61,373 bases of DNA, taken from the NCBI GenBank assembly GCA_037130055.1, contig JBAXTS010000002.1, forward strand, positions 1 through 61,373. The letters run 5' to 3'. The position numbers were made by a program, and so were the translations under genes. Position 1 is the first letter of the stretch. Every line of letters starts with the position of its first letter. Positions 12,204 through 46,539 of this stretch are shown here, in pieces. Source of the DNA: a bacterium. Its GTDB lineage: Bacteria > Patescibacteriota > Minisyncoccia > Phycocordibacterales > UBA9973. The notes beneath the pieces were generated by a model, which saw only the letters and a program-made list of their open reading frames with translations, had not been told where the DNA came from and made no database searches.

Positions 12204-12232
12204 TTGACAAATTTGTTTTTTTATATTTAAAT
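12204..12232 (+). promoter_or_regulatory. candidate promoter of cassette A (TTGACA-N17-TTAAAT)
   Basis: Consensus -35 hexamer and an AT-rich -10 candidate about 40 nt upstream of the GAGGAGGG Shine-Dalgarno. Confidence 0.4.
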
Positions 12233-12274
12233 TGTTATAGGAAACGTTCATCTGTATCACTAGAGGAGGGCCTC

Positions 12275-12547
12275 ATGGCCATCACGCACAACAGCTACTA
12301 CGAAGGAAGAGTGCAGTCACTCGGGTTCACGGACGGAAACGGCAAAGACGCCACTGTCGGCGTTCTGGAGCCGGGTATTTACAAGTTCGGACGTGCGGAA
12401 CGACGCGAAATAATCATCGTGCTCCATGGGACCATCTTCGCCAAAGGCCAGATCTTGGCGATCCACGACACAATCTGTTTCGAGGTAGGAGAAGAGGTTG
12501 AAGTTGAGGTTCGCGAAACGGCCGCCTATGGCTGCGTCTACTTCTAG
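12275..12547 (+). CDS. ppnP: PpnP/YaiE-family (DUF1255 cupin) pyrimidine/purine nucleoside phosphorylase-like protein
   Basis: NSYYEGRVQSLGF...ATVGVLEPGIYKF...AAYGCVYF aligns by eye with E. coli PpnP. Strong Shine-Dalgarno GAGGAGGG. About 55% G+C by hand count. Confidence 0.8.
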   Translation: MAITHNSYYEGRVQSLGFTDGNGKDATVGVLEPGIYKFGRAERREIIIVLHGTIFAKGQILAIHDTICFEVGEEVEVEVRETAAYGCVYF

Positions 12548-12575
12548 TTTGTGGGACGTTTTTCCTGCATCATAC

Positions 12576-12626
12576 GCCGTTCCCACCAGTCAACTGAAAA
12601 GGCCGACTGGAGGAACGGCTTTTTCT
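12576..12626 (+). terminator. rho-independent terminator of cassette A
   Basis: GCCGTTCC...GGAACGGC stem followed by TTTTTC; homologous to the terminator at 13331-13386. Confidence 0.7.
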
Positions 12627-12811
12627 ATTTCAATATAAAAAATAGTTGAACGCTTTGCGTACAATGTTTATGTGAGCCACAATAATTTGCTTTTCGACAA
12701 AAGCAAATTTTCCAGCCCCGGACTCAGCTATTTTTTCTACTAAAAAAATATGCTTCCGTCTTCACAAAAGCGAAAAAGACTAGAGCAGTCTAGTCTTTTT
12801 GAATTCGCGCT

Positions 12812-12842
12812 TTTGTGACCTTAATTATACGGAATTGGAACC
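12812..12842 (-). repeat. degenerate copy of tRNA-Glu 3' end, P2
   Basis: Differs from P1 at a single position (12821 T versus 12141 C). Confidence 0.7.
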
Positions 12843-12917
12843 GGGTTGTATGTCAAGTAAGGGGATTTGAGCAGTTTTTAAGCTAGGGGAAATAATTTTC
12901 ATGATAGTTTTTATGTA

Positions 12918-12946
12918 TTGACATTTAATATTGAATATGCTATAAT
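12918..12946 (+). promoter_or_regulatory. consensus sigma70 promoter of cassette B (TTGACA-N17-TATAAT)
   Basis: Both hexamers match the consensus perfectly, with a 17-nt spacer. Confidence 0.65.
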
Positions 12947-13058
12947 ATAAGGTATGTTCTTTAAAAGTGCTCTGGAAAGTGAAATGTAGAGGAGTATTTA
13001 GATTCGTCTTTAATTCACTTTTCAGAGCAAATGCGTTTATTTTCGAAGGAGAAGGAAG

Positions 13059-13322
13059 ATGTCAGAAGATTTGAGCAACGTTGAAGTTGAAGTGTTCACG
13101 TACCGTTCTGTGGTCGTCACTGAGCGGTTCCTCTTCTTGCCGAGGACGTTGTTGGATCAACTGGAAGAGGCCTTGGCCAAGAAGGCGGGGAAGAGACCGG
13201 ATAACCACACGGCCTACAAGCTCACGTGTCGGAACGGTCTGGGTGGCGAGAGCGTCACCTACATCGCGTTCAGCGACAACCTGGCTTCGTTCGGTCTCTC
13301 AATCGAGAAAACGCCCTGGTAA
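13059..13322 (+). CDS. hypothetical 87-aa protein (cassette B cargo)
   Basis: GC-rich ORF with Shine-Dalgarno AAGGAG 7 nt upstream; its own promoter and terminator; no family recognised. Confidence 0.65.
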   Translation: MSEDLSNVEVEVFTYRSVVVTERFLFLPRTLLDQLEEALAKKAGKRPDNHTAYKLTCRNGLGGESVTYIAFSDNLASFGLSIEKTPW

Positions 13323-13330
13323 TATCATCA

Positions 13331-13386
13331 GCCGTTCCGTCAGTTCGCGCAAACGAAAAAGCCGAACTGGAGGAACGGCTTTTTCT
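13331..13386 (+). terminator. rho-independent terminator of cassette B
   Basis: GCCGTTCC...GGAACGGC plus TTTTTC. It shares the 26-nt string ACTGGAGGAACGGCTTTTTCTATTT with cassette A. Confidence 0.7.
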
Positions 13387-13583
13387 ATTTTTATTTTTTA
13401 AAAAAAGTTGGATGCTTCGCATTCTATATTTACGTGGTCACAAGTTACTAAATTTTTTACTTCTTAAAATCGTAAAAAATGTAAGTACTTGCCGACCCCG
13501 GCTCGGCTATTTTTGTACTCAAAAATTATGCCTGCGCCTTCACAAATCACTTGCAAATAAAGCAGTTTATTTGCTTTGTGTGA

Positions 13584-13607
13584 TTTGTGACCCTACGCGG
13601 AAACGCG
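13584..13607 (-). repeat. degenerate copy of tRNA-Glu 3' end, P3 (miniaturised T-arm)
   Basis: The minus strand reads CGCGTTTCCGCGTAGGGTCACAAA, versus CGGGTTCGATTCCCGGTAGGGTCACA in the tRNA. Confidence 0.55.
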
Positions 13608-13755
13608 AGTACGCTTTCGGTCACAAATAATTTTTTGCTAAAAATTTTCGCTACCCCGCCTCGGACTCGTCAGTCCTGCGGCCTTCGATTCTCTCCGTAA
13701 GGAGATCACTAGCGATATAAAAATAACCCACTGATGTGGATTATTTTTGATCGTG

Positions 13756-13827
13756 TGACCCTACCGGGAATCGAACCCGAATTTAATCCTTGAGAAGGAT
13801 CCGTCCTAACCGTTAGACGATAGGGCC
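13756..13827 (-). tRNA. tRNA-Glu (anticodon CUC)
   Basis: Hand-folded cloverleaf: acceptor GGCCCUA/UAGGGUC, anticodon loop UUCUCAA, T-loop TTCGATT, 4-nt variable loop. Confidence 0.9.
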
Positions 13828-13909
13828 GTCAACAGGGGCATATCAATAATGCGATATGCCCAATAGAAAAAATATAGCATTTTTTCTTGGAAAATCAAAA
13901 ATAATTTTT

Positions 13910-14959
13910 TTAGTCTTCAATTTTAGGTTTTTCTACTTCAAGTAGCGAGAGTTCTGGAGAAGTTCCAGCTATGCGTAGGACATCTTTATCTATTTTTTTT
14001 AGTTCCTTATTTGATGCATTGTAATGGTTTACCACAGTACCTAGCGCGTTCCCGAGTTTATTGTGATATTCGTCATAGGATTTCAAATGCTTACCTAGGT
14101 CTTCTACTTTTTTTATTATTTCTTTTGCGGATTCTTCTATTTTAAGTGCTTTGAGTCCTTGGAGGACAGTTTGTAAATAGGCTAGAAAAGAAGTAGGAGA
14201 GGTGATTATAACTTTATATTTTCCTGCTGCACGTTGTATAAGGTTTTCATTCTCTTCAGTTGTTGATGCTCCGACTTTATTTGTAAGCAAGTCATAATAA
14301 ATAGCTTCGTGAGGGATAAACATAAATGCAAAATCTGTGGTGCCTTTTGTTGGATGGATATATTTTGCTGTTTCTGTAATTCTATTTTTAAGATCATTAA
14401 CAAAAACTGTTTCTAATCTTTTCTTTTCTGTTGCATCTCGTTCCTCAACCATTTTATTATAATTTTCTAGGGAGAATTTTGAATCAATTGGGATTATTTT
14501 ATCTTTTACAAAGACTACTGCATCTACGATAGTTCCATCAGGAAAAGGGTATTGCATTTGGTAGCTTCCAGGAGGTAAGACATTTTTTAAAACTGTTTCC
14601 AAATAATATTCTCCGAGTATGCCGCGTTGTTTTGGATTTTTTAAAATATTTTCCAGGCTCTGTAGTTGGTCTGCAAAAGAAATGACTTGTTTGTTTGTCT
14701 CATCGAGTCGTGTGAGTCGCTCTGTGACATCACGTATAATTTTATTAGATTCACTAGAGTGAAATCTTAAACTCTCGTTGACTTGTTTATGGCTTTCTCC
14801 TATTTTATTGTCCACTGTTCTAGAGAGCTCGTTTATTTGAGTTAGAATCAAGCCTAGACCTGTGTCATTCTTTTTTTCATCCTTCCTCTTGTTAAATATA
14901 AAATAAGCAGTGAAACCTCCAACCACGAGACCTATAAATATTCCAAAAATATTTTCCAT
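13910..14959 (-). CDS. rmuC: DNA recombination protein RmuC
   Basis: N-terminal transmembrane helix, long coiled coil, and a C-terminal RmuC nuclease-like region (…VDAVV…IPIDSKF…). Confidence 0.88.
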   Translation of the reverse strand: MENIFGIFIGLVVGGFTAYFIFNKRKDEKKNDTGLGLILTQINELSRTVDNKIGESHKQVNESLRFHSSESNKIIRDVTERLTRLDETNKQVISFADQLQSLENILKNPKQRGILGEYYLETVLKNVLPPGSYQMQYPFPDGTIVDAVVFVKDKIIPIDSKFSLENYNKMVEERDATEKKRLETVFVNDLKNRITETAKYIHPTKGTTDFAFMFIPHEAIYYDLLTNKVGASTTEENENLIQRAAGKYKVIITSPTSFLAYLQTVLQGLKALKIEESAKEIIKKVEDLGKHLKSYDEYHNKLGNALGTVVNHYNASNKELKKIDKDVLRIAGTSPELSLLEVEKPKIED

Positions 14960-15002
14960 TCTAATATTTTAACACCTTTATTTTGTAAAGAGAAATTTCT
15001 GA

Positions 15003-15045
15003 ATAAAAGAGAAAGCCACCGTAAAAGCTAGGCTTTCCCGGTGGC
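15003..15045 (-). terminator. terminator of GC islet C
   Basis: GCCACCG...CGGTGGC stem followed on the minus strand by TTTCTCTTTT. Confidence 0.55.
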
Positions 15046-15047
15046 GA

Positions 15048-15308
15048 TTATGACGATTGTTCTGGTGTTGCTTCTAGCCAGAACACATGTGGCAGGAGAA
15101 TGTCCTGGAGCACGACGACCTCATTCGAAATGAGCTTGCAATTCATCCAGTTTTTGAGCGAGCCGTCACTTATTCGTAGCCCGTCCGGGATGCGCAAGCT
15201 TTCCAGAAACTCTCCAGATGATGAGAATACACGACCTCGTGTAACCCGGTTCGACTCCAGAGATATCTCAAATGAAATTCTCTGGTTAGCTCTTAGGTTG
15301 TTGAACAT
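15048..15308 (-). CDS. hypothetical 86-aa protein (islet C, distal gene)
   Basis: GC-rich ORF with GGAG 8 nt upstream of the ATG; followed by a terminator. Confidence 0.55.
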   Translation of the reverse strand: MFNNLRANQRISFEISLESNRVTRGRVFSSSGEFLESLRIPDGLRISDGSLKNWMNCKLISNEVVVLQDILLPHVFWLEATPEQSS

Positions 15309-15366
15309 GTTACTCCAAATTGTGGGCGGAGCTCTATGAGACGACCTCCGCCCACAGGTGCCGAAT

Positions 15367-15621
15367 CTAACACCTTTCGACGACTCCGAAGGTGTATCCG
15401 CTCCTACTCATCGATACCACAGCAAGCGGCTTGCCAGAATGAACAGCAAGGCCGAGCAAATATGCTCGCATCTCGTCTCCAGGGGCGAGGTCCTGGGGGA
15501 CCTTCAGCTGCTCGATGGGCTCCCTATCTGGCGTTATGGCGAGATGTACACCAGGGAAGACGAACGCTGTGAGCACACCACTTTGCTGCATAAACATCAC
15601 GAGTTGGTTTTTCCCAATCAT
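15367..15621 (-). CDS. hypothetical 84-aa protein (islet C, proximal gene)
   Basis: GC-rich ORF; Shine-Dalgarno GGGAGGAG 3 nt upstream of the ATG; promoter-like hexamers upstream. Confidence 0.6.
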   Translation of the reverse strand: MIGKNQLVMFMQQSGVLTAFVFPGVHLAITPDREPIEQLKVPQDLAPGDEMRAYLLGLAVHSGKPLAVVSMSRSGYTFGVVERC

Positions 15622-15668
15622 CGGCTCCTCCCAAAAAACGAAGCATAAAAGAACACCTAGTAGCTATA

Positions 15669-15696
15669 ATTATGCAAAAATAAGTTTCTAAGTCAA
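15669..15696 (-). promoter_or_regulatory. candidate promoter of islet C (TTGACT-N16-CATAAT)
   Basis: Hexamers read on the minus strand, immediately downstream of the exonuclease stop codon. Confidence 0.45.
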
Positions 15697-15700
15697 TAAG

Positions 15701-16417
15701 TTATTTTTTGAGATGGTGTTTTAGAGTAAAGATCCAATCTTCATCGATTTGGTCGCTTTCGAGCTTTTGTGCTAGTAGCCACTCCAAATATCCACGGTCT
15801 GTTTTTGAAACGTCTTCAATTTTCTTTCCGAGATGTTTTCCAAAATTAAACGAACGTAGGAGTGATGGGTGTGAAGAAATTTCTATCATTTTTTCTATAG
15901 TTGCGTCTTCGCTCAAATTCTCCTCCTTTATTAATTTATTTTTAAGTCTTTCAAAAAGTTTTTCTAAAACCAAAACATCTCCCATTGCATCATGTGCAGT
16001 TGCTTCTATCTCTATATCCAAATAGTATCGCAAGTACTGTAGATTATATCTATCTATTTTTCCTTCCTGGTCTAAGTGTCTTGCAACACGAAGAGTGCAA
16101 ATGAATTTGCTTGGATTTATCCCTTCTTTATTCATAATCATTAAATCAAAAGGGGCATTGTGTGCTACGACAACAGAATTCTCGTCTTCGAAAAGTTTTT
16201 TAATTTTTATTGAATCAGCACTTCCTTTGAACGTAGGCTTGTCAGCTATCATCTTGTTTGTGATGTGATGCACGGCAGAAGCTTCTGGTGGAATTCTCAT
16301 TTCTGGTTTATAAAGACCTGTAAAAGTCTCATCGCCAGTTTTGTAGGCTATTTGAACAAGAAAATCCTTTTCTGTGTTGCCTGTTGTTTCTGTATCAAAA
16401 AATATAAGTTTAGACAT
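15701..16417 (-). CDS. DEDDh 3'-5' exonuclease (DnaQ/epsilon-like) with C-terminal DUF3820-like tail
   Basis: Exo motifs FFDTETTG, HNAPFD and HDAMGD; C-terminal FGKHLGKKIEDV...GYLEWL. Confidence 0.85.
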   Translation of the reverse strand: MSKLIFFDTETTGNTEKDFLVQIAYKTGDETFTGLYKPEMRIPPEASAVHHITNKMIADKPTFKGSADSIKIKKLFEDENSVVVAHNAPFDLMIMNKEGINPSKFICTLRVARHLDQEGKIDRYNLQYLRYYLDIEIEATAHDAMGDVLVLEKLFERLKNKLIKEENLSEDATIEKMIEISSHPSLLRSFNFGKHLGKKIEDVSKTDRGYLEWLLAQKLESDQIDEDWIFTLKHHLKK

Positions 16418-16455
16418 AGTGCTATTTTAACACATTTTTGATATAATTTATATAT

Positions 16456-16905
16456 ATGTTGCACGAACAAATAAAAAATAATATTAAGGAATCAATGAAA
16501 GCTGGCGACAAGGTTCGCCTGGAGGTCATGAGGGGCTTAGTTGCCGCTTTTACAAATGAGCTAGTTTCAAAAAGTAGAACTCCGCAAGAAATGTTGACAG
16601 ATGATGAGGCTTTGTCCGTCATTACAAAACTTTCCAAACAGAGAAAGGACTCTATCGAGCAATTCAAGAAGGGCAATAGAGAAGATTTGGTAAAAGAAGA
16701 GCAAGCTCAGCTTGCAATTCTTGAAAGCTATTTACCCAAGTTGATGGAAAGGAGCGAAGTTGAAAAAATAGCACAAGCCAAAAAAGATGAATTAGCTATC
16801 ACAGATGCTACCAAGAAGGGAATGCTCATGTCAGCCCTGATGAAGGACCTCAAAGGCAAAGCAGATGGAATGATGGTGAAGGAAGTTGTGGATTCCTTAT
16901 TTTAA
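16456..16905 (+). CDS. GatB/YqeY domain protein
   Basis: 149 aa; the ...IKESMKAGDKVRLEVMRGL... pattern is typical of YqeY. Confidence 0.85.
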   Translation: MLHEQIKNNIKESMKAGDKVRLEVMRGLVAAFTNELVSKSRTPQEMLTDDEALSVITKLSKQRKDSIEQFKKGNREDLVKEEQAQLAILESYLPKLMERSEVEKIAQAKKDELAITDATKKGMLMSALMKDLKGKADGMMVKEVVDSLF

Positions 16906-16914
16906 TTTCTATTT

Positions 16915-17523
16915 ATGCATACAATCAATCTCTTAACTAGCCTTGTTGAACATTATCAGGTTTTAGCTTATGCAATAATTTATATTGGGGTACTCTTTGA
17001 GGGAGAATTTTTTATAATTTCTACAGGAATTCTTACTCACCTTGGAGCACTAAATTTTTACTGCGCGTTGTTTTTTGTTTTGCTCGGTGGACTATCAAAA
17101 ACATTGATTGGCTACCGGCTTGGTGAATTCTTGTTCAGAAAGTTCAATCATCACAGATTCTTTACATATATTCAAAAGAGAGTTTATACCATAGTTCCAA
17201 GATTTAAGGAAAACCCATTTTGGTCTGTATTTGCGTCAAAATTTATTATTGGTGCGAACAATATTGTAATAATATTTTCTGGTTTTGAGAGGATTGATTA
17301 TAGGAAATATTTGAAAGCTGAGCTTTCTGCGACGGTGATATGGGCTCCTGTGCTACTATCGTTAGGTTACTTTTTCAGTTATACTGCACTTCGTGTCAGT
17401 CGTGAGATATGGAGATTTTTGATGGTTATTATGGTTTTGTTTATTATATTCGTTCTTTTTGATAAATTAGTAAGCTGGCTTTATGAGTTATTTGAAGAAT
17501 TTTACAATGGAAAAAATGAATAA
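16915..17523 (+). CDS. DedA/VTT-family membrane protein
   Basis: Multi-pass membrane protein with a DedA-like pattern; 202 aa. Confidence 0.75.
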   Translation: MHTINLLTSLVEHYQVLAYAIIYIGVLFEGEFFIISTGILTHLGALNFYCALFFVLLGGLSKTLIGYRLGEFLFRKFNHHRFFTYIQKRVYTIVPRFKENPFWSVFASKFIIGANNIVIIFSGFERIDYRKYLKAELSATVIWAPVLLSLGYFFSYTALRVSREIWRFLMVIMVLFIIFVLFDKLVSWLYELFEEFYNGKNE

Positions 17524-18445
17524 ATTAATTACACACAATGGTTCCTTTCACGCAGATGATGTTTTTGCTTGTGCGACCCTATGTCTATATTTGGAGAAGA
17601 ATAATGAAAAGTTTGAGATTATTCGCACGAGGGACGAGCACATTATAAAAACAGGAGATTACATTTTTGATATTGGAGGTATTTATGACGAATCTAAAAA
17701 CCTTTTTGACCATCATCAAATAGGAGGCGCCGGCAGGAGAAAAAATAATATTGAATATGCCGCTTTTGGCCTAGTTTGGAAAAAATTTGGTAAAATACTA
17801 ACTGGCTCCGAAGAGTTGTCAGATTTTATAGATAATAGGCTTAGTGCCCCCGTTGACGCATTTGACAACGGTTTTGATTTAGTAGAAAACAAATATGAGA
17901 CTACTCCGTATTATATACAACATTTTTTGATCTCTATGCGACCTACTTGGAGAGAAGAAGAAGAAAACCTAAACACAAGTGATCTTGCATATCGTGACCA
18001 AACAAAATCAAAGGATGGAATGTTCCTTAAATCTGTTGAAATTGCAAAAATAATTTTGTCTAGAGAAATTATTCAGGTACAGCATGCTCTCTTGGCAGAA
18101 GAGTCAGTCGTTTCAATATACAATAAAACTGAAGATAAAAGAATTATAGTTTTGGACAAGAATTATCCTAGTGAATATATTTTAAATAATTTTTCTGAAC
18201 CAGTTTTTATTATATATCCTAGGGTGTCTGATAATACCTGGGGCGCCAAGGCAGTAAATGAAAATCCAAAAACTTTTATTAACAGAAAAAATTTTCCAAA
18301 ACTGTGGGCAGGATTAAAGAATGAGGAGTTGGCAAATGTCACAGGAGTGGCTGATGCCATTTTTTGTCATCGTGGACTTTTTTTAACTGTAGCAAAATCT
18401 AAAGAAGGAGCTATTCAATTGGCTCAATTAGCGTTAAGTAGCTAA
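17507..18445 (+). CDS. MYG1/UPF0160 family metal-dependent hydrolase
   Basis: ITHNGSFHADD and FDHHQ motifs; start set at ATG 17507. Confidence 0.85.
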   Translation: MEKMNKLITHNGSFHADDVFACATLCLYLEKNNEKFEIIRTRDEHIIKTGDYIFDIGGIYDESKNLFDHHQIGGAGRRKNNIEYAAFGLVWKKFGKILTGSEELSDFIDNRLSAPVDAFDNGFDLVENKYETTPYYIQHFLISMRPTWREEEENLNTSDLAYRDQTKSKDGMFLKSVEIAKIILSREIIQVQHALLAEESVVSIYNKTEDKRIIVLDKNYPSEYILNNFSEPVFIIYPRVSDNTWGAKAVNENPKTFINRKNFPKLWAGLKNEELANVTGVADAIFCHRGLFLTVAKSKEGAIQLAQLALSS

Positions 18446-18466
18446 AAAATGTTAGTATAAAGCTAA

Positions 18467-18492
18467 TGCCTAGTGCCTAGTGCCTAGTGCCT
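18467..18492. repeat. heptanucleotide tandem repeat (TGCCTAG x3 plus a partial unit)
   Basis: Read directly; ends 8 nt before the obg ATG. Confidence 0.9.
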
Positions 18493-18499
18493 TATATAT

Positions 18500-19513
18500 A
18501 TGGCATTTATTGATGAAATGAAAATAACAGCTGAGGCAGGACGCGGTGGAGACGGCGTTGTGCGTTGGCGACAAGAAAAATTTACACCAAAGGGCGGACC
18601 TTCAGGAGGTGATGCTGGCCGTGGTGGTGATTTTTATATTTTAGCAGTGCGTGATATACATATACTTTCAAAATACAAAGCCAAGAAAAGTTTTGCTGCT
18701 GGACGCGGAGAAGACGGCAGTAATAAAAGTTTGCATGGCAAAAATGGTGATGACTTTTTTTTAGAATTACCCGTAGGCTCAATTGTGACAAACCTAGGAA
18801 CAGAAGAAACATGGCAGCTAACCGACGAGGGACAGAAAATAATGTTACTGAAGGGCGGTTATGGTGGCTTTGGAAATGAGCATTTCAAAAGTTCTGTAAA
18901 CACTACTCCGATGGAATCACGCCCAGGGCAAGATGGAGAGAAAGGGAATTTTAAAATAGAATTAGAGCTTTTCGCAGACATTGGCTTGATAGGTTTGCCA
19001 AATGCTGGCAAATCGTCTTTATTAAATGCGCTTACAAATGCTGATGCAAAAGTGGGTGATTATGCATTTACTACACTTGATCCCAACCTTGGTGATTTTT
19101 ATGGACACATTATTGCTGATATTCCTGGAGTTATAGAGGGAGCTTCAGAAGGCAAAGGACTAGGGGTAAAATTCTTGCGACATATTAAACGCACAAAGAT
19201 GCTCGCACATCTTGTATCTTTTGAGAATTTGAAATCAACTAGTCCAGCAGGAATGATTAAAGCTTATAAAGAGATTCGTAAAGAATTAACAAAATATGAT
19301 AAAAATCTTGGCTTGAGTGGAGATGGCCTAGCAGAGAAGAAAGAAATTGTAGTCCTTACAAAGACTGATGTAATAGAAGACACAAAGTTGGTTGCTAAGG
19401 TAGTGAAGGAATTTGAAAAGTTAGATGTAAAAGTTTTTTCACTTACTCTTTATGATGACAAAACTGTAAAGAAGTTTAGAGATGAATTAGTAAAAATATT
19501 AAAAAAGAAATAA
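18500..19513 (+). CDS. obg: GTPase Obg
   Basis: Glycine-rich Obg fold (GGDGG, GGPSGGDGGRGG) plus G-domain GLPNAGKSS. Confidence 0.95.
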   Translation: MAFIDEMKITAEAGRGGDGVVRWRQEKFTPKGGPSGGDAGRGGDFYILAVRDIHILSKYKAKKSFAAGRGEDGSNKSLHGKNGDDFFLELPVGSIVTNLGTEETWQLTDEGQKIMLLKGGYGGFGNEHFKSSVNTTPMESRPGQDGEKGNFKIELELFADIGLIGLPNAGKSSLLNALTNADAKVGDYAFTTLDPNLGDFYGHIIADIPGVIEGASEGKGLGVKFLRHIKRTKMLAHLVSFENLKSTSPAGMIKAYKEIRKELTKYDKNLGLSGDGLAEKKEIVVLTKTDVIEDTKLVAKVVKEFEKLDVKVFSLTLYDDKTVKKFRDELVKILKKK

Positions 19514-39164: not shown

Positions 39165-40178
39165 ATGGGAATTTTTTCTAAAAAAATCGGAATCGACTTG
39201 GGGACAGCAAACACCTTGGTTTTTCTACCTGGAAAAGGAATTGTTCTAAATGAGCCTTCTGTGGTAGCTGTTTCCGAACAAGATAATAGAATTCTGGCGA
39301 TTGGATTTGAAGCGAAAGATATGATAGGCAAAACTCCCGGCAATATAATCACTTACTGTCCAATGAAAGATGGTGTGATAGCAGACTATCGCGTGACAGA
39401 AGCAATGCTTAGATATTTTATTGGCAAGGCTATGGGTAGGTTCAACTTGTTTAAGCCAGATGTTATGGTTTCTGTTCCGGCTGGAGTTACAAGCACAGAG
39501 AGACGAGCAGTGATAGAGGCTGCAATACGTGCAGGCGCAAAAAATGCTTATGTTGTAAAAGAACCCATCTTGGCAGCAATTGGAGCTGGCATTCCAATTT
39601 ATGAATCCAAGGGTTACATGGTTGTCGATATCGGTGGTGGAACTACAGATGTTGCTGTTATTTCACTTGGTGGAATAGTCGCCTCTACTTCAGTAAAATG
39701 TGCAGGAAATAAAATTGATGCAGCGATAGCTGACTATATTAAAAAAACTTTTAATCTTGCCATAGGAGATAGAACAGCAGAAGAGGTAAAAATTAAAATT
39801 GGGGCTGCTGTACTTCTAGAGGAAGAACTACGAGTAACAATTAAAGGTAGAGATTTTATTCAAGGACTACCTAGAAGTGCACAAGTAGGAACTAATGAAA
39901 TTGTTCGTGCAATTGATGTAGAATTGAAACAAATAATTAAAGCGATTAAGGATGTACTACAAGAAACTCCCCCCGAGCTAGCATCTGATATTATTGATCA
40001 CGGTATAATCATGACTGGTGGTTCATCTCAGCTTCGCAATCTCACTGATTTGGTTTATAGAAAAACAGGGGTAAAAGCATCAATGGCGGAGGATCCATTG
40101 TTCTGCGTAGTAAAAGGCACCGGAATAGCGCTTGATCATTTGGATGTTTACAAGAAAACAGTTTTAAGTAAGAAGTAG
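39165..40178 (+). CDS. mreB: rod shape-determining protein MreB
   Basis: IGIDLGTANTLV and DIGGGTTDVAV actin-fold motifs. Confidence 0.95.
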   Translation: MGIFSKKIGIDLGTANTLVFLPGKGIVLNEPSVVAVSEQDNRILAIGFEAKDMIGKTPGNIITYCPMKDGVIADYRVTEAMLRYFIGKAMGRFNLFKPDVMVSVPAGVTSTERRAVIEAAIRAGAKNAYVVKEPILAAIGAGIPIYESKGYMVVDIGGGTTDVAVISLGGIVASTSVKCAGNKIDAAIADYIKKTFNLAIGDRTAEEVKIKIGAAVLLEEELRVTIKGRDFIQGLPRSAQVGTNEIVRAIDVELKQIIKAIKDVLQETPPELASDIIDHGIIMTGGSSQLRNLTDLVYRKTGVKASMAEDPLFCVVKGTGIALDHLDVYKKTVLSKK

Positions 40179-40238
40179 GCAACTAGGCGCTAGGCTCTAG
40201 TAAACTAGCTAAAGTCTAATGCTCAAAGCCTAAAGCCT
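40176..40238. repeat. degenerate heptanucleotide tandem repeat (about 9 units, ending AAAGCCT AAAGCCT)
   Basis: 7-nt periodicity read directly; it abuts the holB ATG. Confidence 0.7.
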
Positions 40239-40964
40239 ATGATGTCCAAACATTTAGATAAAAATAGTTTGCACCACGCATATCTCATAGAGGGTAGTCG
40301 GGATGAAATTACCCAGGAAGTTATTTCTTTTCTTAAAGATATTGGAATAAATACAGAAGGCAGTTCTGATTTTATAAATATTAGTCTAGATTCATTTAAA
40401 ATTGAAGATGCTCGCAATTTAAAATCATTTAGCAGTGAAAAGAGTTATACCTCAAATAAAAAAATATTTATTATTTCCGTAAACAATTTTTTACTTGAGG
40501 CACAGAATAGTCTGCTAAAAATGTTCGAGGAGCCAATAGAAAACACACATTTCTTTATTATAATGCCAGACCTCAATGGTCTTTTAAAAACTTTTGTTTC
40601 TAGATTTTATTTAATTTCCTTAAAATCAGACGCTGGAAATAAAAATAGCAACGACGAGGCCGAAATATTTATTTCATTATTGCACAAAGACAGAATTGAT
40701 TTTATAAAAAAATTACTTAAAGAAGAAGATGTTGAGGACGATGAAGGGAACAAAATTCTTGCACTGGAATCATCTCGTTCGAAAGCTTTACAATTTCTAG
40801 ACTCTCTAGAGGTTGTATTGCACAACAGACTACCGAGCGATAATTCGAGTGTAATGATTTTTGAGCATATATTTAAAATACGTGAGTTTTTGCGTATGCC
40901 AGGTAGTTCTACCAAGAGCTTGATGGAGTCAATCGTCTTCGTGATTCCAGGTTTTTCAAAATAA
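40239..40964 (+). CDS. holB: DNA polymerase III delta'-like clamp-loader subunit
   Basis: LHHAYLIEG N-terminus and AAA+-like fold pattern without a P-loop lysine. Confidence 0.65.
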   Translation: MMSKHLDKNSLHHAYLIEGSRDEITQEVISFLKDIGINTEGSSDFINISLDSFKIEDARNLKSFSSEKSYTSNKKIFIISVNNFLLEAQNSLLKMFEEPIENTHFFIIMPDLNGLLKTFVSRFYLISLKSDAGNKNSNDEAEIFISLLHKDRIDFIKKLLKEEDVEDDEGNKILALESSRSKALQFLDSLEVVLHNRLPSDNSSVMIFEHIFKIREFLRMPGSSTKSLMESIVFVIPGFSK

Positions 40965-40989
40965 TTTTTACATGCTATAATAAATAAAT

Positions 40990-41541
40990 ATGCAATACAA
41001 TTTTTCAAATTTTAAAATAGCGTTAAAAAAGGTTGAAGATTTTTTGAGTAAGGAATATACCCAGCTTAATATCGGCAGAGCTTCTCCAATGGTTCTAGAC
41101 GGTGTATCAGTAGAATCCTATGGTTCATATTTGCCACTTAAGAACGTGGCTTCTATCTCAATAGAGGATTCAAAGACATTACGTATTGCTCCTTGGGACA
41201 AAAGTCAGGTTAAGGGAATAGAAAAAGCTATATTAGTATCAAATTTAGGATTATCTGTTGCAACTGATGATTTGGGAATAAGGGTTATTTTTCCGCAGTT
41301 GACTACCGAAACTAGGCAGACTCTAGTAAAAGTGTTGAAGGAGAAGCTAGAAGAGCAGAGGATCACTGTGCGTCGTGAGCGAGAAGTTATTTTTCGCGAT
41401 ATGGAGGCTAAGGAAAAAGAAAGCATCATGACCGAAGATGAAATGTTCCGCGCTAAAGAAGAATTACAGAAAATAATAACTGAAACAAATAATAACCTAG
41501 AGGCGGTTTTTGAGAAGAAAGAAAAGGAGGTAATGGGGTAG
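40990..41541 (+). CDS. frr: ribosome recycling factor
   Basis: Typical RRF pattern (...IRVIFPQLTTETRQTLVK...). Confidence 0.95.
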   Translation: MQYNFSNFKIALKKVEDFLSKEYTQLNIGRASPMVLDGVSVESYGSYLPLKNVASISIEDSKTLRIAPWDKSQVKGIEKAILVSNLGLSVATDDLGIRVIFPQLTTETRQTLVKVLKEKLEEQRITVRREREVIFRDMEAKEKESIMTEDEMFRAKEELQKIITETNNNLEAVFEKKEKEVMG

Positions 41542-41546
41542 AAAAC

Positions 41547-41577
41547 AATTACGAATTATTAATTACGAATTACGAAT
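41547..41577. repeat. heptanucleotide tandem repeat AATTACG (same unit as 33795-33843)
   Basis: AATTACG AATTATT AATTACG AATTACG; it abuts the TTG start of rseP. Confidence 0.9.
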
Positions 41578-42744
41578 TTGAGCATATTTATTTTCATTGT
41601 AATACTGTTGGTTTTAGTCTTAGTTCATGAAGCGGGGCATTTTTTTGCTGCGAAGAGATTTGGAATACGAGTTGATGAATTTGGTTTTGGATTTCCTCCA
41701 AAGTTATTTGGTTTTAAAAAAGGTGAGACAGAATACACAATCAATCTTCTGCCATTAGGTGGTTTTGTTAAGATTTATGGAGAAAATATTGAGGAAGCTG
41801 ATTTTGTAGAAGTAGGTTTTCTTGATAAAAAAGATGATAACACTATAATAAACGAATCTTCTAGAAGCCTAGCCTATAAACCAAAATGGCAACAAGCCAT
41901 TGTTCTTTTTGCTGGGGTTCTTGCGAATTTTATTTTGGCCTGGATTTTATTTTCCTTCGGATTTATGTCGGGACTTCCAACTTCAGTAGGAAGCGAAAGA
42001 GCTGGCTATGCACTTTCTGATATTAATCTAGTTGTTGTTTCTGTCTTGGCGAAATCTCCTGCAGAAAATGCTGGATTAAAAATTGGTGATAAAATAGTTG
42101 AAATTTCTATACCGAGTTCTTCTAATTCGAATGATTATCTAAAGGCTCCAAATCCTGATCAATTAAAAAATTATATTATAAGTCACGCATCTGTAGTAAC
42201 AGAGAGGAATCCAATATCGATAAGTTATATTCGTGGTAACATGCAGGTAACTAGTGTGCCTGTTGTTCCGCAGAGGAATAACACAAATACAGTACCTACT
42301 ATTGGAATATCTATGGATATGATTGGGATAGCGAGATTGCCATTTTTTGTGGCACTTTGGGAAGGAATGAAGTTAGACCTATCAATGACCAAAAACACTG
42401 TCGTAGGGCTGTATGCGCTTGTTTCTGAGGGTATTATGGGGAAAGGTAGCTTTGCTTCTGTTACAGGACCTGTAGGAATGGTAAGTATTGTGGGTGATGC
42501 ATACCAGTTTGGCTTTGTTTATCTTCTTTCCTTTGCTGCACTTATTTCAATAAACCTTGCAATCATAAACTTACTTCCATTTCCAGCCCTTGATGGAGGC
42601 AGACTTTTCTTCTTATTTATAGAAAAAATAAAGGGTTCACGAATTAATCCAAAAATTACAAATACAGCAAACATGGTTGGTTTTGGTCTTCTTATTTTCC
42701 TCATGCTTATCGTTACATATCACGATGTCGTGAAGTTGTTTTAG
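41578..42744 (+). CDS. rseP: M50 site-2 protease RseP-like
   Basis: HEAGHF zinc motif, PDZ-like middle region, C-terminal LPFPALDGG motif; TTG start as given in the ORF track. Confidence 0.85.
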   Translation: MSIFIFIVILLVLVLVHEAGHFFAAKRFGIRVDEFGFGFPPKLFGFKKGETEYTINLLPLGGFVKIYGENIEEADFVEVGFLDKKDDNTIINESSRSLAYKPKWQQAIVLFAGVLANFILAWILFSFGFMSGLPTSVGSERAGYALSDINLVVVSVLAKSPAENAGLKIGDKIVEISIPSSSNSNDYLKAPNPDQLKNYIISHASVVTERNPISISYIRGNMQVTSVPVVPQRNNTNTVPTIGISMDMIGIARLPFFVALWEGMKLDLSMTKNTVVGLYALVSEGIMGKGSFASVTGPVGMVSIVGDAYQFGFVYLLSFAALISINLAIINLLPFPALDGGRLFFLFIEKIKGSRINPKITNTANMVGFGLLIFLMLIVTYHDVVKLF

Positions 42745-42769
42745 TCTAAAATTAGTTTATACTCTAAAA

Positions 42770-43750
42770 ATGCAAAAGAAAACCGCTGGTAAAAAACTAA
42801 AGATAGGAGTACTTTTTGGAGGTAAATCAGCTGAGCACGAGGTTTCTTTGCAATCTGCAAAAAATGTTATTAATGCACTAGATAAATCAAAATATTTAAT
42901 AACACCTATCAAAATTAACAAGGATGGAAAGTTTAAATTTGATGAACTGAAAAAATTTGATGTGGTTTTTCCTGTTATGCATGGGCCTTTCGGCGAGGAT
43001 GGCAGCATGCAGGGCTTGCTTAAGCTCGCTGGTGTTCCGTTTGTTGGCCCAAGTGTTCTTGGTTCAGCAGTTGGGATGGATAAGGATGTGATGAAGAGGC
43101 TCTTTCGAGATGCAGGTATTCCTATTGGGAAATTTATAACTCTTAGTGCCGGTGAAAAGAAATCGTTTAGTGAAATTAAAAAAACCTTAGGACTTCCTGT
43201 GTTCGTCAAGCCAGCTAATTTAGGTTCATCTGTTGGTATTAGTAAGGTTAGAAATGAAAATGAGTTGAACGCCGCTTTAAAAAATGCATTTCAATATGAC
43301 ACAAAGATTGTTATAGAGGAAAATATTGCCGGTCAGGAGATAGAGTGTTCTGTTTTGGGTAATGAAAATCCAGTTGCCTCTGTTCCAGGAGAAATTATTG
43401 CAAATCAAGAATTTTATTCATATAATGCTAAATATATCGATGCAGGATATGAGGTTGTTATTCCTGCAAAAATTTCTAGTAATAAAGCTAACGAAATACA
43501 AAAAATCGCAATAAAAGTATTTAAGGTTTTGTGCTGTGAAGGAATGGGACGCGTGGATGTATTTTTGAAAAAAAATGGTGAAGTAATAGTGAATGAAATT
43601 AATACTATTCCTGGATTTACTGCAATTAGTATGTATCCGAAACTCTGGGAAGCGAGTGGAATGCCACTGCCGAAACTTTTGGATAGATTAGTAAGCCTTG
43701 CGATAGAAAGATTTCAAAGAGAGCAGAAATTAAAAACTACTGTTAAATAG
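42770..43750 (+). CDS. ddl: D-alanine--D-alanine ligase
   Basis: ATP-grasp fold with GGKSAEHEVS N-terminus and EINTIPGFT C-terminal motif. Confidence 0.93.
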   Translation: MQKKTAGKKLKIGVLFGGKSAEHEVSLQSAKNVINALDKSKYLITPIKINKDGKFKFDELKKFDVVFPVMHGPFGEDGSMQGLLKLAGVPFVGPSVLGSAVGMDKDVMKRLFRDAGIPIGKFITLSAGEKKSFSEIKKTLGLPVFVKPANLGSSVGISKVRNENELNAALKNAFQYDTKIVIEENIAGQEIECSVLGNENPVASVPGEIIANQEFYSYNAKYIDAGYEVVIPAKISSNKANEIQKIAIKVFKVLCCEGMGRVDVFLKKNGEVIVNEINTIPGFTAISMYPKLWEASGMPLPKLLDRLVSLAIERFQREQKLKTTVK

Positions 43751-43755
43751 ATACT

Positions 43756-44892
43756 GTGAAAAAAACATTACCGCTATCATATATTGAACTTTCCAAAAAT
43801 AATTTAGTTCACAATATTAAACAATTCAGAAATCTTGCAAAAGCAGGTACGAAGTTTTCTGTTGCAATAAAGGGGAATGCGTATGGTCATGGCCAAAACG
43901 AAATTGCAAAGATTCTTGAGCCACACGTAGATTATTTTCAAGTAGATAGTATTGAGGAGCTCAGATTATTGCGCAAAACAAGCAAGAAGAAAACATTTGT
44001 TCTAGGCTACATACAAAAATCTGAATTATCAGAAGCAATAAAATTGGGTTGTATTTTATCAGTTTTTTCTATCAAGCAATTATTAAGAATCTCTGCTATC
44101 GCAAAAACCTTTAATATAATTCAGGAAGTACACATACCAGTGGACGCATATCTAGGAAGAGAAGGTTTTTTATTAAATGAATTACCAGAAGTTCTAAATG
44201 AAATAAAAAAGTCCAAATCTATAAAATTTACAGGAATGTATGCTCACTTCGCAAACATTGAAGATACTGCAAGTTTTTCTCATGCAGAAAAGCAAATTAA
44301 AGAGTATGAAAAAGCACAGGAATTGGCAAAAGAATTTGGTTTCAAAAATTTACAAACTCACATCTCTGCTACTTCTGGTCTTTTGGTTTATGAAAAAGAA
44401 AAAGGAATACACCCGCTTGTTCGTTTGGGTATAGGGGTATATGGTTTGTGGCCATCATCTCATTTGAAAACTTGGTATAAGGACAATATCGAACTTAAGC
44501 CGGTTCTCACATGGAAAACAAAAATTGCTCAAATTAAAATTTTACCTAAAGATAGTACTATTGGTTACGGATTAACTTACAAGACAAAGAGAGAAACAAA
44601 AATTGCCATTATTCCACAAGGTTATGCAGATGGTCTTGATAGAGGATTTTCCAATAATGGCGAAATGCTTGTTAGGGGGACAAGATGTAAGGTTTTAGGT
44701 AGAGTAATGATGAATATGAGTGTAATTGATGTAAGTCATTTAAAAAAAGTTAATGCAGAAGATAGCGTCATAATATTGGGCAAGCAAGGTAACGAAGAAA
44801 TAACAGCAGAGGATATGGCAAAGAGAATTGGAACTATTAATTATGAAATCGTCACACGTATTAACCCATTATTGGGTAGGATAGTTGTTTAG
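43756..44892 (+). CDS. alr: alanine racemase
   Basis: PLP lysine context VAIKGNAYGHG; follows ddl; GTG start. Confidence 0.92.
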   Translation: MKKTLPLSYIELSKNNLVHNIKQFRNLAKAGTKFSVAIKGNAYGHGQNEIAKILEPHVDYFQVDSIEELRLLRKTSKKKTFVLGYIQKSELSEAIKLGCILSVFSIKQLLRISAIAKTFNIIQEVHIPVDAYLGREGFLLNELPEVLNEIKKSKSIKFTGMYAHFANIEDTASFSHAEKQIKEYEKAQELAKEFGFKNLQTHISATSGLLVYEKEKGIHPLVRLGIGVYGLWPSSHLKTWYKDNIELKPVLTWKTKIAQIKILPKDSTIGYGLTYKTKRETKIAIIPQGYADGLDRGFSNNGEMLVRGTRCKVLGRVMMNMSVIDVSHLKKVNAEDSVIILGKQGNEEITAEDMAKRIGTINYEIVTRINPLLGRIVV

Positions 44893-44938
44893 GCTTCTTT
44901 TCCTTGCGTTTTTTAGCTTTTTATACTAATCTATATAC

Positions 44939-45097
44939 ATGTCACAAGATAGACTTATAAAACTTGCTTGCGGAACTTGCAAGCACATAAATTACTGGTC
45001 CAGCAAAAATAAGAAACTCGTCACTAAAAAGATAGAGCTTAAAAAATTCTGCAAATGGTGCCGAAAGCAGACTAAGCATAAAGAGATCAAGAAATAG
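44939..45097 (+). CDS. rpmG: 50S ribosomal protein L33
   Basis: 52-aa ORF absent from the track: MSQDRLIKLACGTCKHINYWSSKNKK...KKFCKWCRKQTKHKEIKK (CxxC...CxxC). Confidence 0.85.
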   Translation: MSQDRLIKLACGTCKHINYWSSKNKKLVTKKIELKKFCKWCRKQTKHKEIKK

Positions 45098-45129
45098 ATT
45101 TTCTTCTTATTTATGCTACACTAAAGACG

Positions 45130-45156
45130 ACCCTATAAGGGTTGTTTTGGTTTTTT
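45130..45156 (+). terminator. rpmG terminator
   Basis: ACCCT-ATA-AGGGT followed by TGTTTTGGTTTTTT. Confidence 0.55.
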
Positions 45157-45227
45157 GGGCCTATAGTTCAGCGGTAGAATTCTCGTCTCCAAAACGAGCG
45201 ACTGAGGTTCAAATCCTCATGGGCCCG
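45157..45227 (+). tRNA. tRNA-Trp (anticodon CCA)
   Basis: Hand-folded: acceptor GGGCCTA/TGGGCCC, anticodon loop CTCCAAA, T-loop TTCAAAT. Confidence 0.9.
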
Positions 45228-45242
45228 CAGTTATAACAATAT

Positions 45243-45914
45243 ATGCAAAAAAATTATAAATATTTGAGTATTATAAGTGTTTTCTTTGTTTCAGTACTGC
45301 TCATTTCAAACGTAGCTTCAACAAAAATAGTAGATTTGAAATATTTTGTATTTGATGGAGGAACATTGCTTTTTCCTCTCTCTTATATATTTGGAGATAT
45401 TTTGACAGAAGTTTATGGATATAAAAGGTCCAGAGGTGTGATATGGCTCGGTTTTTTTATGGCACTGCTTATGTCGGTTGTTTTCATTATTGTGGGGAAG
45501 CTTCCACCAGCATCAGATTGGCATAATCAAACAGCATATGACGCTATTCTAGGGCTAACACCGAGGATAGTAATAGCCAGTTTGATTGCGTATTTTTTTG
45601 GAGAATTTTCTAATTCTTTTATTTTAGCTAAAATGAAAATGTGGACAAAAGGTAAGTGGCTTTGGACACGAACAATTGGCTCTACTGTGGTTGGAGAGTT
45701 GGTAGATAGTATGTTGTTTATTTTGATAGCTTTTACTGGTATATTGCCAAGTTCATTGCTCTTTACACTGATAATTTCAAATTACATATTCAAAACAGCA
45801 GTAGAAATACTGTTTACGCCAGTAACATATAAAGTAGTAAAATTTTTAAAACTTAAAGAAGAGGAGGATTATTACGACAAAGATACCAATTTTAATCCGT
45901 TTGCTGTAAAATAA
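45243..45914 (+). CDS. yhhQ: queuosine precursor transporter (YhhQ/DUF165 family)
   Basis: ISNVASTKIV...GGTLLFPLSYIFGDILTEVYGY signature. Confidence 0.85.
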   Translation: MQKNYKYLSIISVFFVSVLLISNVASTKIVDLKYFVFDGGTLLFPLSYIFGDILTEVYGYKRSRGVIWLGFFMALLMSVVFIIVGKLPPASDWHNQTAYDAILGLTPRIVIASLIAYFFGEFSNSFILAKMKMWTKGKWLWTRTIGSTVVGELVDSMLFILIAFTGILPSSLLFTLIISNYIFKTAVEILFTPVTYKVVKFLKLKEEEDYYDKDTNFNPFAVK

Positions 45915-45924
45915 TTTCATAAAA

Positions 45925-45964
45925 AAGCATAATTTTACCTCAGCTTGATCTCATCAAACTGAGG
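45925..45964 (-). terminator. candidate terminator of islet F
   Basis: Minus strand CCTCAGTTTGAT-GAG-ATCAAGCTGAGG followed by TAAAATTATGCTTTTTT. Confidence 0.4.
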
Positions 45965-46028
45965 AATCGTGGTGATATATTTCTACCCGCCGAAACGTTA
46001 TCGGCGGGGGTTCTATTAATACCAATTG

Positions 46029-46511
46029 CTAAAATTTTAGCACCATTGGTGTCTTGTTGCCCCAGCGATTCAGAGACCTTACATGAAGGTGAACCTCGTT
46101 GCTTACTCCACCTTCCTTCTCGTGTTCAAGATAAAGAACCGACCATTTCGAAGAGACTGATACATACCCGAGGATGAGCTGTATCTCTCTCTTGCCTTCT
46201 GGAATTTCCAGAAGTGAAAAGTCTTCTTTACCCAAATAAGCAAGAATAGCGCAGATTCTTCTTGTGTCTGGGCTTTTGCTGATGTCGAGAAATAGTGATT
46301 CCGTGATTATCTTGTCTGTGTTGCTGCCTGTGTGTGTCTGAAATACTTTACAGTCAAGATGATCCACATAATATTTTTCTCCTGCTGTCTCGATTAGTTT
46401 ACGGAAATCACGGTCAACCCTAACCACTCTTCCATCAAAGAAAGATTCTGGGTTAGTGTAACCTGAAGCACGACTGATCGAAAATCTTTTGACCAGGGTT
46501 GGTAAGCTCAT
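46029..46511 (-). CDS. hypothetical 160-aa protein (islet F)
   Basis: Visibly more GC-rich than its neighbours; GGAG 8 nt upstream of the ATG; no family recognised. Confidence 0.65.
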   Translation of the reverse strand: MSLPTLVKRFSISRASGYTNPESFFDGRVVRVDRDFRKLIETAGEKYYVDHLDCKVFQTHTGSNTDKIITESLFLDISKSPDTRRICAILAYLGKEDFSLLEIPEGKREIQLILGYVSVSSKWSVLYLEHEKEGGVSNEVHLHVRSLNRWGNKTPMVLKF

Positions 46512-46531
46512 TGTTCAACTCCAATTCATAA

Positions 46532-46539
46532 GGGGGGGG
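46532..46539. repeat. G8/C8 homopolymer in the 5' region of the islet F gene
   Basis: Read directly; 21-28 nt upstream of the ATG on the coding strand. Confidence 0.9.

Follow-up and report, generated by a model that had tools for sequence, protein, structure and literature searches.

We analysed a stretch of 61,373 nucleotides (nt) of a Candidatus Nomurabacteria chromosome (contig JBAXTS010000002.1 of assembly GCA_037130055.1, positions 1 to 61,373, hereafter the window), which carries six short G+C-rich islets between its housekeeping genes. An earlier note on this DNA had described the islets as a coherent foreign class, set apart by strong Shine-Dalgarno (SD) sites that the surrounding genes largely lack. 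The mean G+C content of the window is 0.373. A Pfam scan of 30 backbone proteins returned housekeeping functions: thioredoxin reductase, FtsZ, FtsA, MraZ, RsmH, YqeY, Obg, GatB and aldolase, as well as L25, L31, a release factor, the ATP synthase operon, RRF, RseP, RelA/SpoT, TopA, DprA, SerS and Dus. The rest of the backbone, which also includes ParB, MurA, MiaA, Alr, Ddl and MreB, was named by synteny or size only. The islets are flanked by cellular genes (those of FtsZ, the release factor and ATP synthase, rmuC, rsmI, miaA and similar). A protein search with RmuC retrieved 80 collinear loci in metagenome-assembled genomes of Candidatus Nomurabacteria / Paceibacteria, with protein identities of 76-94%, and these served as the set of relatives.

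According to consensus predictions, each islet is a complete autonomous expression unit composed of a promoter, a 5' untranslated region (UTR) of about 25-110 nt with an SD site, one or two small open reading frames (ORFs) and a terminator. Islets 1, 2 and 6 contain one ORF each and islets 3, 4 and 5 two. Each of the nine ORFs starts 4-8 nt downstream of an SD site that is GGAG or better, and the strength of these sites is given below as the energy (dG, in kcal/mol) of the duplex that the 20 nt before the start can form with the anti-SD sequence ACCUCCUUA. The terminator hairpins fold with z of -4.5 to -7.1 and are followed by U-rich tracts at islets 1-5.

Islets 1 and 2 are on the plus strand. 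Islet 1 (12204..12625) begins with the predicted promoter TTGACA-18-TAAATT (12204-12233), which matches the consensus at 10/12 positions. It is followed by the SD site GAGGAGGG (12263-12270, dG -12.5) before the ATG at 12275, a 90-residue ORF of the PpnP family (12275-12547; G+C content at third codon positions, GC3, 0.68; codon-usage z -11) and a hairpin with a U-run (12576-12625, z -5.2). In islet 2 (12918..13385) the predicted promoter is TTGACA-17-TATAAT with a TG extension (12918-12946, 12/12), the 5' UTR is about 110 nt long and contains the SD site AAGGAG (13046-13051, dG -8.8), and the 87-residue ORF (13059-13322; GC3 0.74, codon z -14) is followed by a hairpin and U-rich tract at 13330-13385. 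Islet 3 lies on the minus strand (14990..15696). Its predicted promoter TTGACT-16-CATAAT (15696-15669, 10/12) precedes ORF 3a (15621-15367, 84 residues, SD GGGAGGAG at 15632-15625, dG -10.2), ORF 3b (15308-15048, 86 residues, SD GGAG) and a predicted terminator hairpin at about 15045-15003.

Islet 4 (27364..27985, plus strand) has a weak predicted promoter with TG (27364-27393, 9/12), ORF 4a (27457-27684, 75 residues, zinc-ribbon-like, SD GGGGGTG, dG -9.7), ORF 4b (27702-27929, 75 residues, SD GGGGGGG) and a hairpin (27940-27972) with a U-rich tail. Islet 5 (36609..37144, minus strand) starts from the predicted promoter TTGACA-16-TATATT (37142-37115, 11/12) and encodes ORF 5a (37092-36847, 81 residues, SD AAAGGAGG, dG -11.6) and ORF 5b, a GTG-started frame at 36904-36698 (68 residues) with GAGGAGG 4 nt upstream (dG -11.8); its terminator, a hairpin with a U-rich tract, is at about 36666-36620. 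ORF 5b overlaps the last 58 nt of 5a (36847-36904) in another frame, and there is an alternative ATG that shares letters with the stop codon of 5a (TGATG). The pair can therefore be read in two ways, as overlapping genes or as a coupled unit of two genes. Islet 6 (45925..46609, minus strand) is marginal: a weak predicted promoter (46609-46581, 9/12) precedes an orphan ORF of 160 residues (46511-46029, SD GGAG, dG -5.9) and two hairpins without a clear U-run (46008-45935).

A scan in 400-nt windows shows G+C peaks of 0.495 (12.2-12.6 kb), 0.492 (13.0-13.4 kb), 0.52 (15.2-15.6 kb), 0.50 (27.6-28.0 kb) and 0.555 (36.6-37.0 kb), just where the earlier note had placed the islets, and only 0.42 at islet 6 (46.0-46.4 kb). 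The jump of about 20 points that it had claimed amounts to 10-19 points at the ORFs and is not uniform. The rise is limited to the ORF and the terminator: the promoters and most of the 5' UTRs are as A+T-rich as the resident genome, and the G+C borders are sharp at the ORFs. G+C is also moderately raised at 25.4-25.8 kb and 34.2-34.8 kb, within conserved backbone genes. The codon-usage analysis that the earlier note had called for also sets islets 1-5 apart. GC3 of islet ORFs 1-5 is 0.49-0.74, compared to 0.30 ± 0.05 in the backbone with a maximum of 0.43, and their codon usage lies 5.8-14 standard deviations away from the backbone mean.

The SD sites differ as well. All the motifs quoted in the earlier note are present in front of the start codons that it had named. 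The mean duplex energy is -9.5 for eight islet ORFs (the ninth, 5b, was scored separately) and -0.85 for the 55 backbone genes, which are spread over the whole window (1..61373) (Mann-Whitney p = 3.5e-6). Just one of the 55 backbone genes reaches a dG of -6 or lower and none reaches -8. The backbone average is in fact weaker than that of 2,000 random positions (-1.83). The genes of FtsZ, L25, L31 and ATP synthase are among those that have no SD site, as are 23 operon-internal genes that overlap or abut the gene upstream. A conserved FtsL-like gene, which has an SD-like motif in five relatives, was considered as a case of native SD use. However, its orthologue in the window lacks the motif and the sample had been selected by a threshold, so it was not used.

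How the backbone genes might start without an SD site is suggested by the sequence directly in front of them. We examined 1,464 ORFs that are not G+C-rich in the window and its 80 relatives (81 Candidatus Nomurabacteria sequences in all). In 23% of these ORFs the distance from the end of a TANNNT box to the start is exactly 6 nt and in 9.6% it is 7 nt, against 2.5% expected by chance at any offset. The logo of the 336 ORFs with the 6-nt spacing has T at -15 in 75% and G at -14 in 66%, is A-rich at positions -9 and -8 and is barely above random in the -35 region; the start codon is ATG in 97% of them. In the window, the box is found 5-8 nt before the start in 22 of the 55 backbone genes and in none of the eight islet ORFs tested. 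Among the 32 backbone genes that are not closely preceded by a gene on the same strand it is carried by 15. Starts with the extended form TGnTAwAAT, its last letter 6-7 nt ahead of the ATG, include those at 4284, 16456, 24587, 40990, 49302 and 58492 and those of the minus-strand genes 13910-14959 and 15701-16417. An extended -10 box 6 nt before the ATG implies leaderless mRNAs. The backbone genes hence appear to be leaderless and transcribed from predicted extended -10 promoters, with a fixed distance between box and start, a preference for ATG and no SD. Leaderless mRNAs combined with operon coupling would account for the absence of SD sites throughout the backbone. A full-text literature search turned up no publication on leaderless initiation in Patescibacteria.

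The islets are variable among close relatives. None of the nine islet proteins has a tblastn match in the 80 syntenic Nomurabacteria loci, in which the flanking genes were all found. At the site of islet 3, the gap between the exonuclease gene (15701-16417) and rmuC (13910-14959) is 741 bp here. Half of 77 relatives have just 4-30 bp at this position and about 28 have 300-1483 bp, and several of the larger gaps contain other G+C-rich SD-led ORFs. A metagenome search with AtpA produced a handful of close relatives, including L083 and L085. The site of islet 4, between the release-factor gene and an RRM gene, measures 156 bp in L085 versus 846 bp in the window. At the site of islet 5, the two convergent flanking genes are about 13 bp apart in L083 (6858->6871, tblastn). 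In L085, the same site is occupied by an unrelated G+C-rich ORF of 99 residues (BLASTP E = 9), which is preceded by a homologous promoter and leader, AGATTTGACATA..TTATA..GAAAGGGG. The sites of islets 3, 4 and 5 are thus empty or otherwise filled in close relatives.

The same type of gene is common in the clade. Intergenic gaps were compared over 1.47 Mb of Nomurabacteria sequence. SD-led ORFs of 45 or more residues are present in 35 of the 57 G+C-rich gaps, compared to 6.8 expected from shuffles. A+T-rich gaps are likewise enriched in small SD-led ORFs (18/113 versus 1.0 expected). The products of these gap ORFs are almost all singletons.

The islet 1 protein matches Pfam family PF06865 (PpnP/DUF1255) with E = 1.7e-13; the score of 51.1 bits exceeds the cut-off of 25, and the alignment spans positions 2-92 of the 92 in the profile. 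It also matches PpnP chains in the PDB (E = 6e-9). It scores 37.7 bits in NCBIfam, below the equivalog cut-off of 143, which indicates a divergent member. Judged by these scores, it is a divergent but full-length member of the PpnP pyrimidine/purine nucleoside phosphorylase family, and a role in salvage would be plausible for an organism that relies on scavenged nucleosides. In a word-indexed search of 5.8 billion protein clusters, carried out with the PpnP, 3a and islet 6 proteins, the PpnP protein had a single match, 44% identical, which is encoded by another organism within an ordinary hisI-HIT operon. For the other eight islet ORFs, Pfam, NCBIfam and PADLOC returned no significant match and PHROGs only weak ones. 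ORF 4a resembles a CxxC...CxxC zinc ribbon, with weak matches only (PHROG E = 8e-4). Single-sequence AlphaFold models were too poor for a fold search (pLDDT, the predicted local distance difference test score, was 54 for islet 2 and 38 for islet 6).

The islet 2 protein is a member of a real protein family, and the layout of its cassette recurs in other contigs. Clustering at the 50% level leaves 65 representatives of the family (P0005-P0069) of 74-112 residues, which are 35-55% identical and share the residues Y15, R16, P28, R29, N49, H50 and D73 and the motif PYRTA..FL.LPR..LE..LA..AG..DNHT.Y..YI.FSD..FG...W. Forty-five members gave no Pfam match and a profile search with the family alignment gave no PDB match. 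A search of the family's 5' UTRs for a conserved structure or riboswitch found no consensus pairs. The relatives in L166, L169 and L172 are lone genes between housekeeping genes with a GC3 of 0.75-0.84. Those in L166 and L169 have a TTGACA/TATAAT-type promoter, a leader of 60-80 nt, a hairpin and a weaker SD site (dG -5.4 and -6.3), and the called start in L172 has none (dG -2.1). L172 is collinear with the window (MurE and a PBP are 66-67% identical), and its family member lies in the same murE to tRNA-Glu region. Backbone genes of these contigs also have -10 boxes abutting the ATG, and the gene contexts in the contigs other than L172 are those of small, partly leaderless genomes. Across the family GC3 stays at 0.54-0.84 in genomes of 0.42-0.52 G+C. 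Since members as diverged as these keep a high GC3, the high G+C content is a long-standing property of the gene pool and not a fresh scar of transfer.

Islets 1 and 2 differ from the others in their surroundings. They are intercalated between copies of a structured, conserved element of about 200 nt, here called CE, next to the tRNA-Glu(CUC) gene (13755-13827, minus strand), the whole arrangement occupying 12630..13827. The two CE copies are at 13387-13602 and 12630-12845 on the minus strand, and repeat comparison revealed a third CE stub at 12132-12165. Many relatives have CE directly 3' of tRNA-Glu(CUC), at a nucleotide identity of about 80-92%, with copies in L011, L024, L025, L034, L058 (two), L066, L074 and L172. 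The consensus structure of ten copies has four helices and shows compensatory double changes in 38 of its 59 predicted pairs, and single copies fold with z of about -6. Rfam contains no match other than tRNAs for the whole window at the gathering threshold or for 11.9-15.8 kb at a permissive threshold. CE is therefore a candidate for a new structured RNA. We had also considered that the repeats at islets 1 and 2 might be duplications of the tRNA-Glu 3' end, i.e. attachment (att) sites left by serial integration, but the alignment of relatives shows them to be tandem CE units. The length of the tRNA-Glu neighbourhood varies from about 0.1 to 9 kb in relatives. In L058, a small GIY-YIG-like ORF (11866-12090) is located just upstream of tRNA-Glu. 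In L011, there is an A+T-rich island of about 4 kb (12575-16650) with genes for DnaJ-domain and for secreted proteins, which ends at a copy of a 47-nt stub found in the window at 12134-12180. The earlier note had several islets lying next to tRNA genes or fragments. This holds for islets 1 and 2, which adjoin a tRNA gene or tRNA-like fragments, but not for the other four.

The most likely explanation, to which we assign a probability of roughly 60%, is that a leaderless core and autonomous, SD-led, G+C-rich cassettes coexist in the Candidatus Nomurabacteria chromosome. The cassette anatomy, the SD contrast and the polymorphism at islets 3, 4 and 5 are established by the data above. Transcription of the core genes would start at the A of the ATG, driven by extended -10 promoters (TGnTAwAAT) that have no -35 box, so that the mRNAs of these genes would need no SD site, and operon-internal genes would be initiated by overlap or close coupling. 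The islets would be strain-variable cassettes of small genes, similar to the morons of phages, with a sigma-70-type -35/-10 promoter and an SD site 4-8 nt before the start. They would occupy intergenic hot spots that are empty or hold other cargo in close relatives, and would be drawn from a flexible gene pool circulating among genomes of the Candidate Phyla Radiation (CPR). A phage or another element, or natural transformation, may have moved them. Cassette mRNAs alone would recruit the 30S subunit through SD:anti-SD pairing, as opposed to the leaderless core mRNAs, and would enjoy a privileged initiation because the cell's own mRNAs would not compete with them for the anti-SD. A more general proposal, that the core is leaderless and SD-free and that a rapidly changing pool of G+C-rich and mostly orphan mini-cassettes is the main or sole client of SD:anti-SD pairing in Nomurabacteria and perhaps in many Paceibacteria, is tentative and may well not hold. 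As part of this proposal, CE on the 3' side of tRNA-Glu might belong to a docking site for the cassettes. Viewed in this way, the statement in the earlier note that the backbone lacks SD sites is true but incomplete, as predicted leaderless initiation with operon coupling turns the observation into a contrast between two expression architectures. Its coherent foreign class survives in part. The islets are distinct in composition and architecture and are accessory with respect to the 80 loci, but no donor was found and islet 6 is marginal.

Several observations weigh against this interpretation. Islet 6 is marginal on every measure (G+C 0.42, GC3 0.42, codon z -2.6, an SD of just GGAG with dG -5.9) and is a weak member of the class. 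Promoters, terminators and transcription starts were predicted from consensus sequences. Neither the 30 Pfam-scanned backbone proteins nor the listed neighbour genes include an integrase, and no transposase, phage gene (capsid, terminase) or clear target-site duplication was found at the cassettes in the window. The 16S rRNA gene is absent from the window and from the approximately 170 loci compared, which also lack the genes of L1 and L11, and an anti-SD motif was detected in just 48% of Parcubacteria 16S genes (PMC9297842). The SD sites of the islets could be non-functional relics of a donor. In the relatives, ORFs were called by a simple longest-ORF procedure, with which SD signals become indistinct in G+C-rich DNA, and just 20-30% of the G+C-rich ORFs score as SD-led. 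Among the 5.8e9 clusters of the word-indexed search there is no homologue of the 3a or islet 6 protein, so it is their architecture that argues for these ORFs being coding. Profile searches left seven of the nine islet ORFs without an assigned function, the three proteins compared with IMG/VR viral contigs (islets 1, 4b and 6) had no relatives there, and simple transfer does not account for the high GC3 kept by the diverged members of the islet 2 family.

The last point bears on the origin of the islets. The earlier note had considered a higher-GC organism, possibly the host of an episymbiont, as the source, in which case the islets would be recent horizontal transfers whose G+C content and SD sites are donor features that have yet to ameliorate. 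The foreign codon usage and GC3, the strain-specific presence of the islets and the wide distribution of PpnP as a cellular enzyme agree with such an origin. So does the DprA gene (54268-55191), which encodes a natural-transformation protein and means that a transformation route exists. Yet a sampled donor should leave close homologues, and the best PpnP match is only 44% identical while 3a and islet 6 have none. Together with the absence of viral relatives of the three proteins tested, this argues against a recent import from a well-sampled host. Furthermore, the promoters and UTRs share the A+T-rich composition of the recipient, G+C rising sharply at the ORF, and members of the islet 2 family retain layout and GC3 at 35-55% identity, one of them in the syntenic L172. 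Nothing points to a host, and an origin of this kind is unlikely. The same three lines of evidence favor the cassette pool circulating among CPR genomes.

Comparably improbable is that the islets are remnants or cargo (morons) of Nomurabacteria prophages or other integrative elements, with the tRNA-Glu region serving as an attachment site and the SD as a phage-style signal. Morons are reportedly independent transcription units located between conserved genes of lambdoid prophages. Like the islets, they have their own promoter, a factor-independent terminator, one or two small genes and an odd composition, and they are present or absent in otherwise collinear genomes. The islets show each of these traits: predicted promoters (10-12/12 at islets 1, 2, 3 and 5 and 9/12 at islets 4 and 6), terminators, presence or absence at islets 3, 4 and 5 and a deviant composition. 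The position of islets 1 and 2 beside tRNA-Glu, in a region of 0.1-9 kb in relatives, and the weak PHROG match of the zinc-ribbon ORF 4a could be taken in the same sense. A prophage location is nevertheless missing: the flanks are cellular, there is no significant PHROG match, and no integrase, capsid, terminase or other phage gene is found in the window or beside the islets. Unlike morons, the islets lie between CPR housekeeping genes with no phage genes near and are SD-led amid leaderless surroundings. The three islet proteins tested have no relatives in IMG/VR contigs, and the repeats at islets 1 and 2 are CE units and not clear att duplications.

Quite unlikely, too, is a native origin, in which the islets are long-resident genes and selection, for instance for mRNA stability or for expression that is regulated or comes in bursts, has preserved their high G+C content together with the SD site and the 5' UTR. 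The GC3 of the islet 2 family and the presence of a member in the same murE to tRNA-Glu region of the more distant L172 would fit well, as would the enrichment of small SD-led ORFs in A+T-rich gaps. However, no islet gene is found at the syntenic positions of the 80 closer relatives, empty sites exist, and one site has a different cargo behind a homologous promoter. Finally, although G+C-rich DNA contains many spurious ORFs on both strands and three islet ORFs are not recorded as called genes in a public collection, an artefact (a chimeric assembly of G+C-rich reads, or spurious ORFs in structured non-coding RNA) is very improbable. The islet 1/2 junction (12354-13582) and islet 6 (45016-49065) recur with 100% identity in a second assembly of run SRR7053541, which makes misassembly unlikely. 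Independent genomes have analogous cassettes at the same sites, the PpnP and islet 2 families consist of real proteins, all nine ORFs have a correctly spaced SD, and Rfam matches nothing but tRNAs at the thresholds and over the stretches given above.

The proposed coexistence of a leaderless core and SD-led cassettes also has to be compared with other known systems. Integron cassettes resemble the islets in being short, mostly single ORFs of unknown function followed by a hairpin, at sites whose cargo differs among relatives, and islets 1 and 2 are integron-like in being arranged in tandem and separated by a repeated structured element. The islets differ in that there is no IntI, attI or Pc, that they have promoters of their own and hairpins with U-runs, and that most are solitary and scattered. 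When the islet hairpins were read by eye, no attC cores (RYYYAAC / GTTRRRY) were seen. Islets 1 and 2 share with tRNA-linked islands a hypervariable stretch (~0.1 to ~9 kb) beside tRNA-Glu. Unlike in such islands, no integrase was found and their repeats are CE copies, and four of the six islets are away from tRNA genes.

Leaderless transcriptomes are found in Mycobacterium, Streptomyces, Deinococcus and many archaea; the 'group C' genomes of GeneMarkS-2 are also comparable. The backbone resembles these genomes in having a -10 box whose short distance from the ATG is constant, a strong preference for ATG and first genes of operons without SD. In the known leaderless bacteria, the remaining genes normally have SD sites. 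Here, in contrast, operon-internal core genes lack them as well, and strong SD sites in the window are limited to the cassettes. Bacteroidetes offer another comparison, since, as far as the account of Jha et al. 2021 cited in PMC9723584 goes, they initiate independently of SD sites and have a sequestered anti-SD. Both there and in the window, the core has no SD sites and a small minority of genes has strong ones. The exceptions in Bacteroidetes are native regulatory cases (such as rpsU), whereas here they are strain-variable cassettes.

CPR/Patescibacteria account for a large share of bacterial diversity and their gene expression is almost unstudied. If the core is leaderless and the cassettes are SD-led, a simple sequence rule would distinguish flexible from core genes. 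Under such a two-tier organization, the combination of G+C-richness and SD would provide a sequence-only marker of the CPR flexible genome, and the anti-SD would be kept, or lost as in some Parcubacteria, according to cassette traffic. The retention of the anti-SD in CPR ribosomes thereby becomes directly testable. The same organization would explain why standard gene callers mishandle the islets: the three ORFs not called in the public collection that contains this contig are 12275-12547 (PpnP), 15048-15308 and 27702-27929, and programs adapted to a leaderless, A+T-rich backbone may overlook such cassettes or assign wrong starts to their genes. The analysis also points to an uncharacterised family of proteins of about 85 residues (islet 2) and to a structured RNA candidate (CE).

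Some other repeated sequences were observed in the window. A palindromic G+C-rich element of about 55 nt, ..CCCCTCTCC-TTnAnAA-GGAGAGGGG-yTGGGG-TGAGGT, occurs three times, at 30310-30355, at 33490-33540 in atpG and at 36200-36250 in an rsmI-like gene. The copies in atpG and the rsmI-like gene are in frame and add about 15-18 residues; in this in-frame insertion into conserved genes the element is similar to the Rickettsia palindromic elements. It is also present in the relatives L006, L008, L032, L038, L059 and L072, and its core GGAGAGGGG yields false SD-like matches. Tandem ACGAATT heptamers are located directly upstream of atpD (33785-33847, with the gene at 33888) and of the rseP-like gene (41544-41592, with the gene at 41578). 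Downstream of the RRM-protein gene, two degenerate copies of a tRNA 5' half (GAGCGTGTAGTTCAGT...) at 28600-28740 lie just upstream of the intact tRNA-Ile(GAT) gene (28745-28817).

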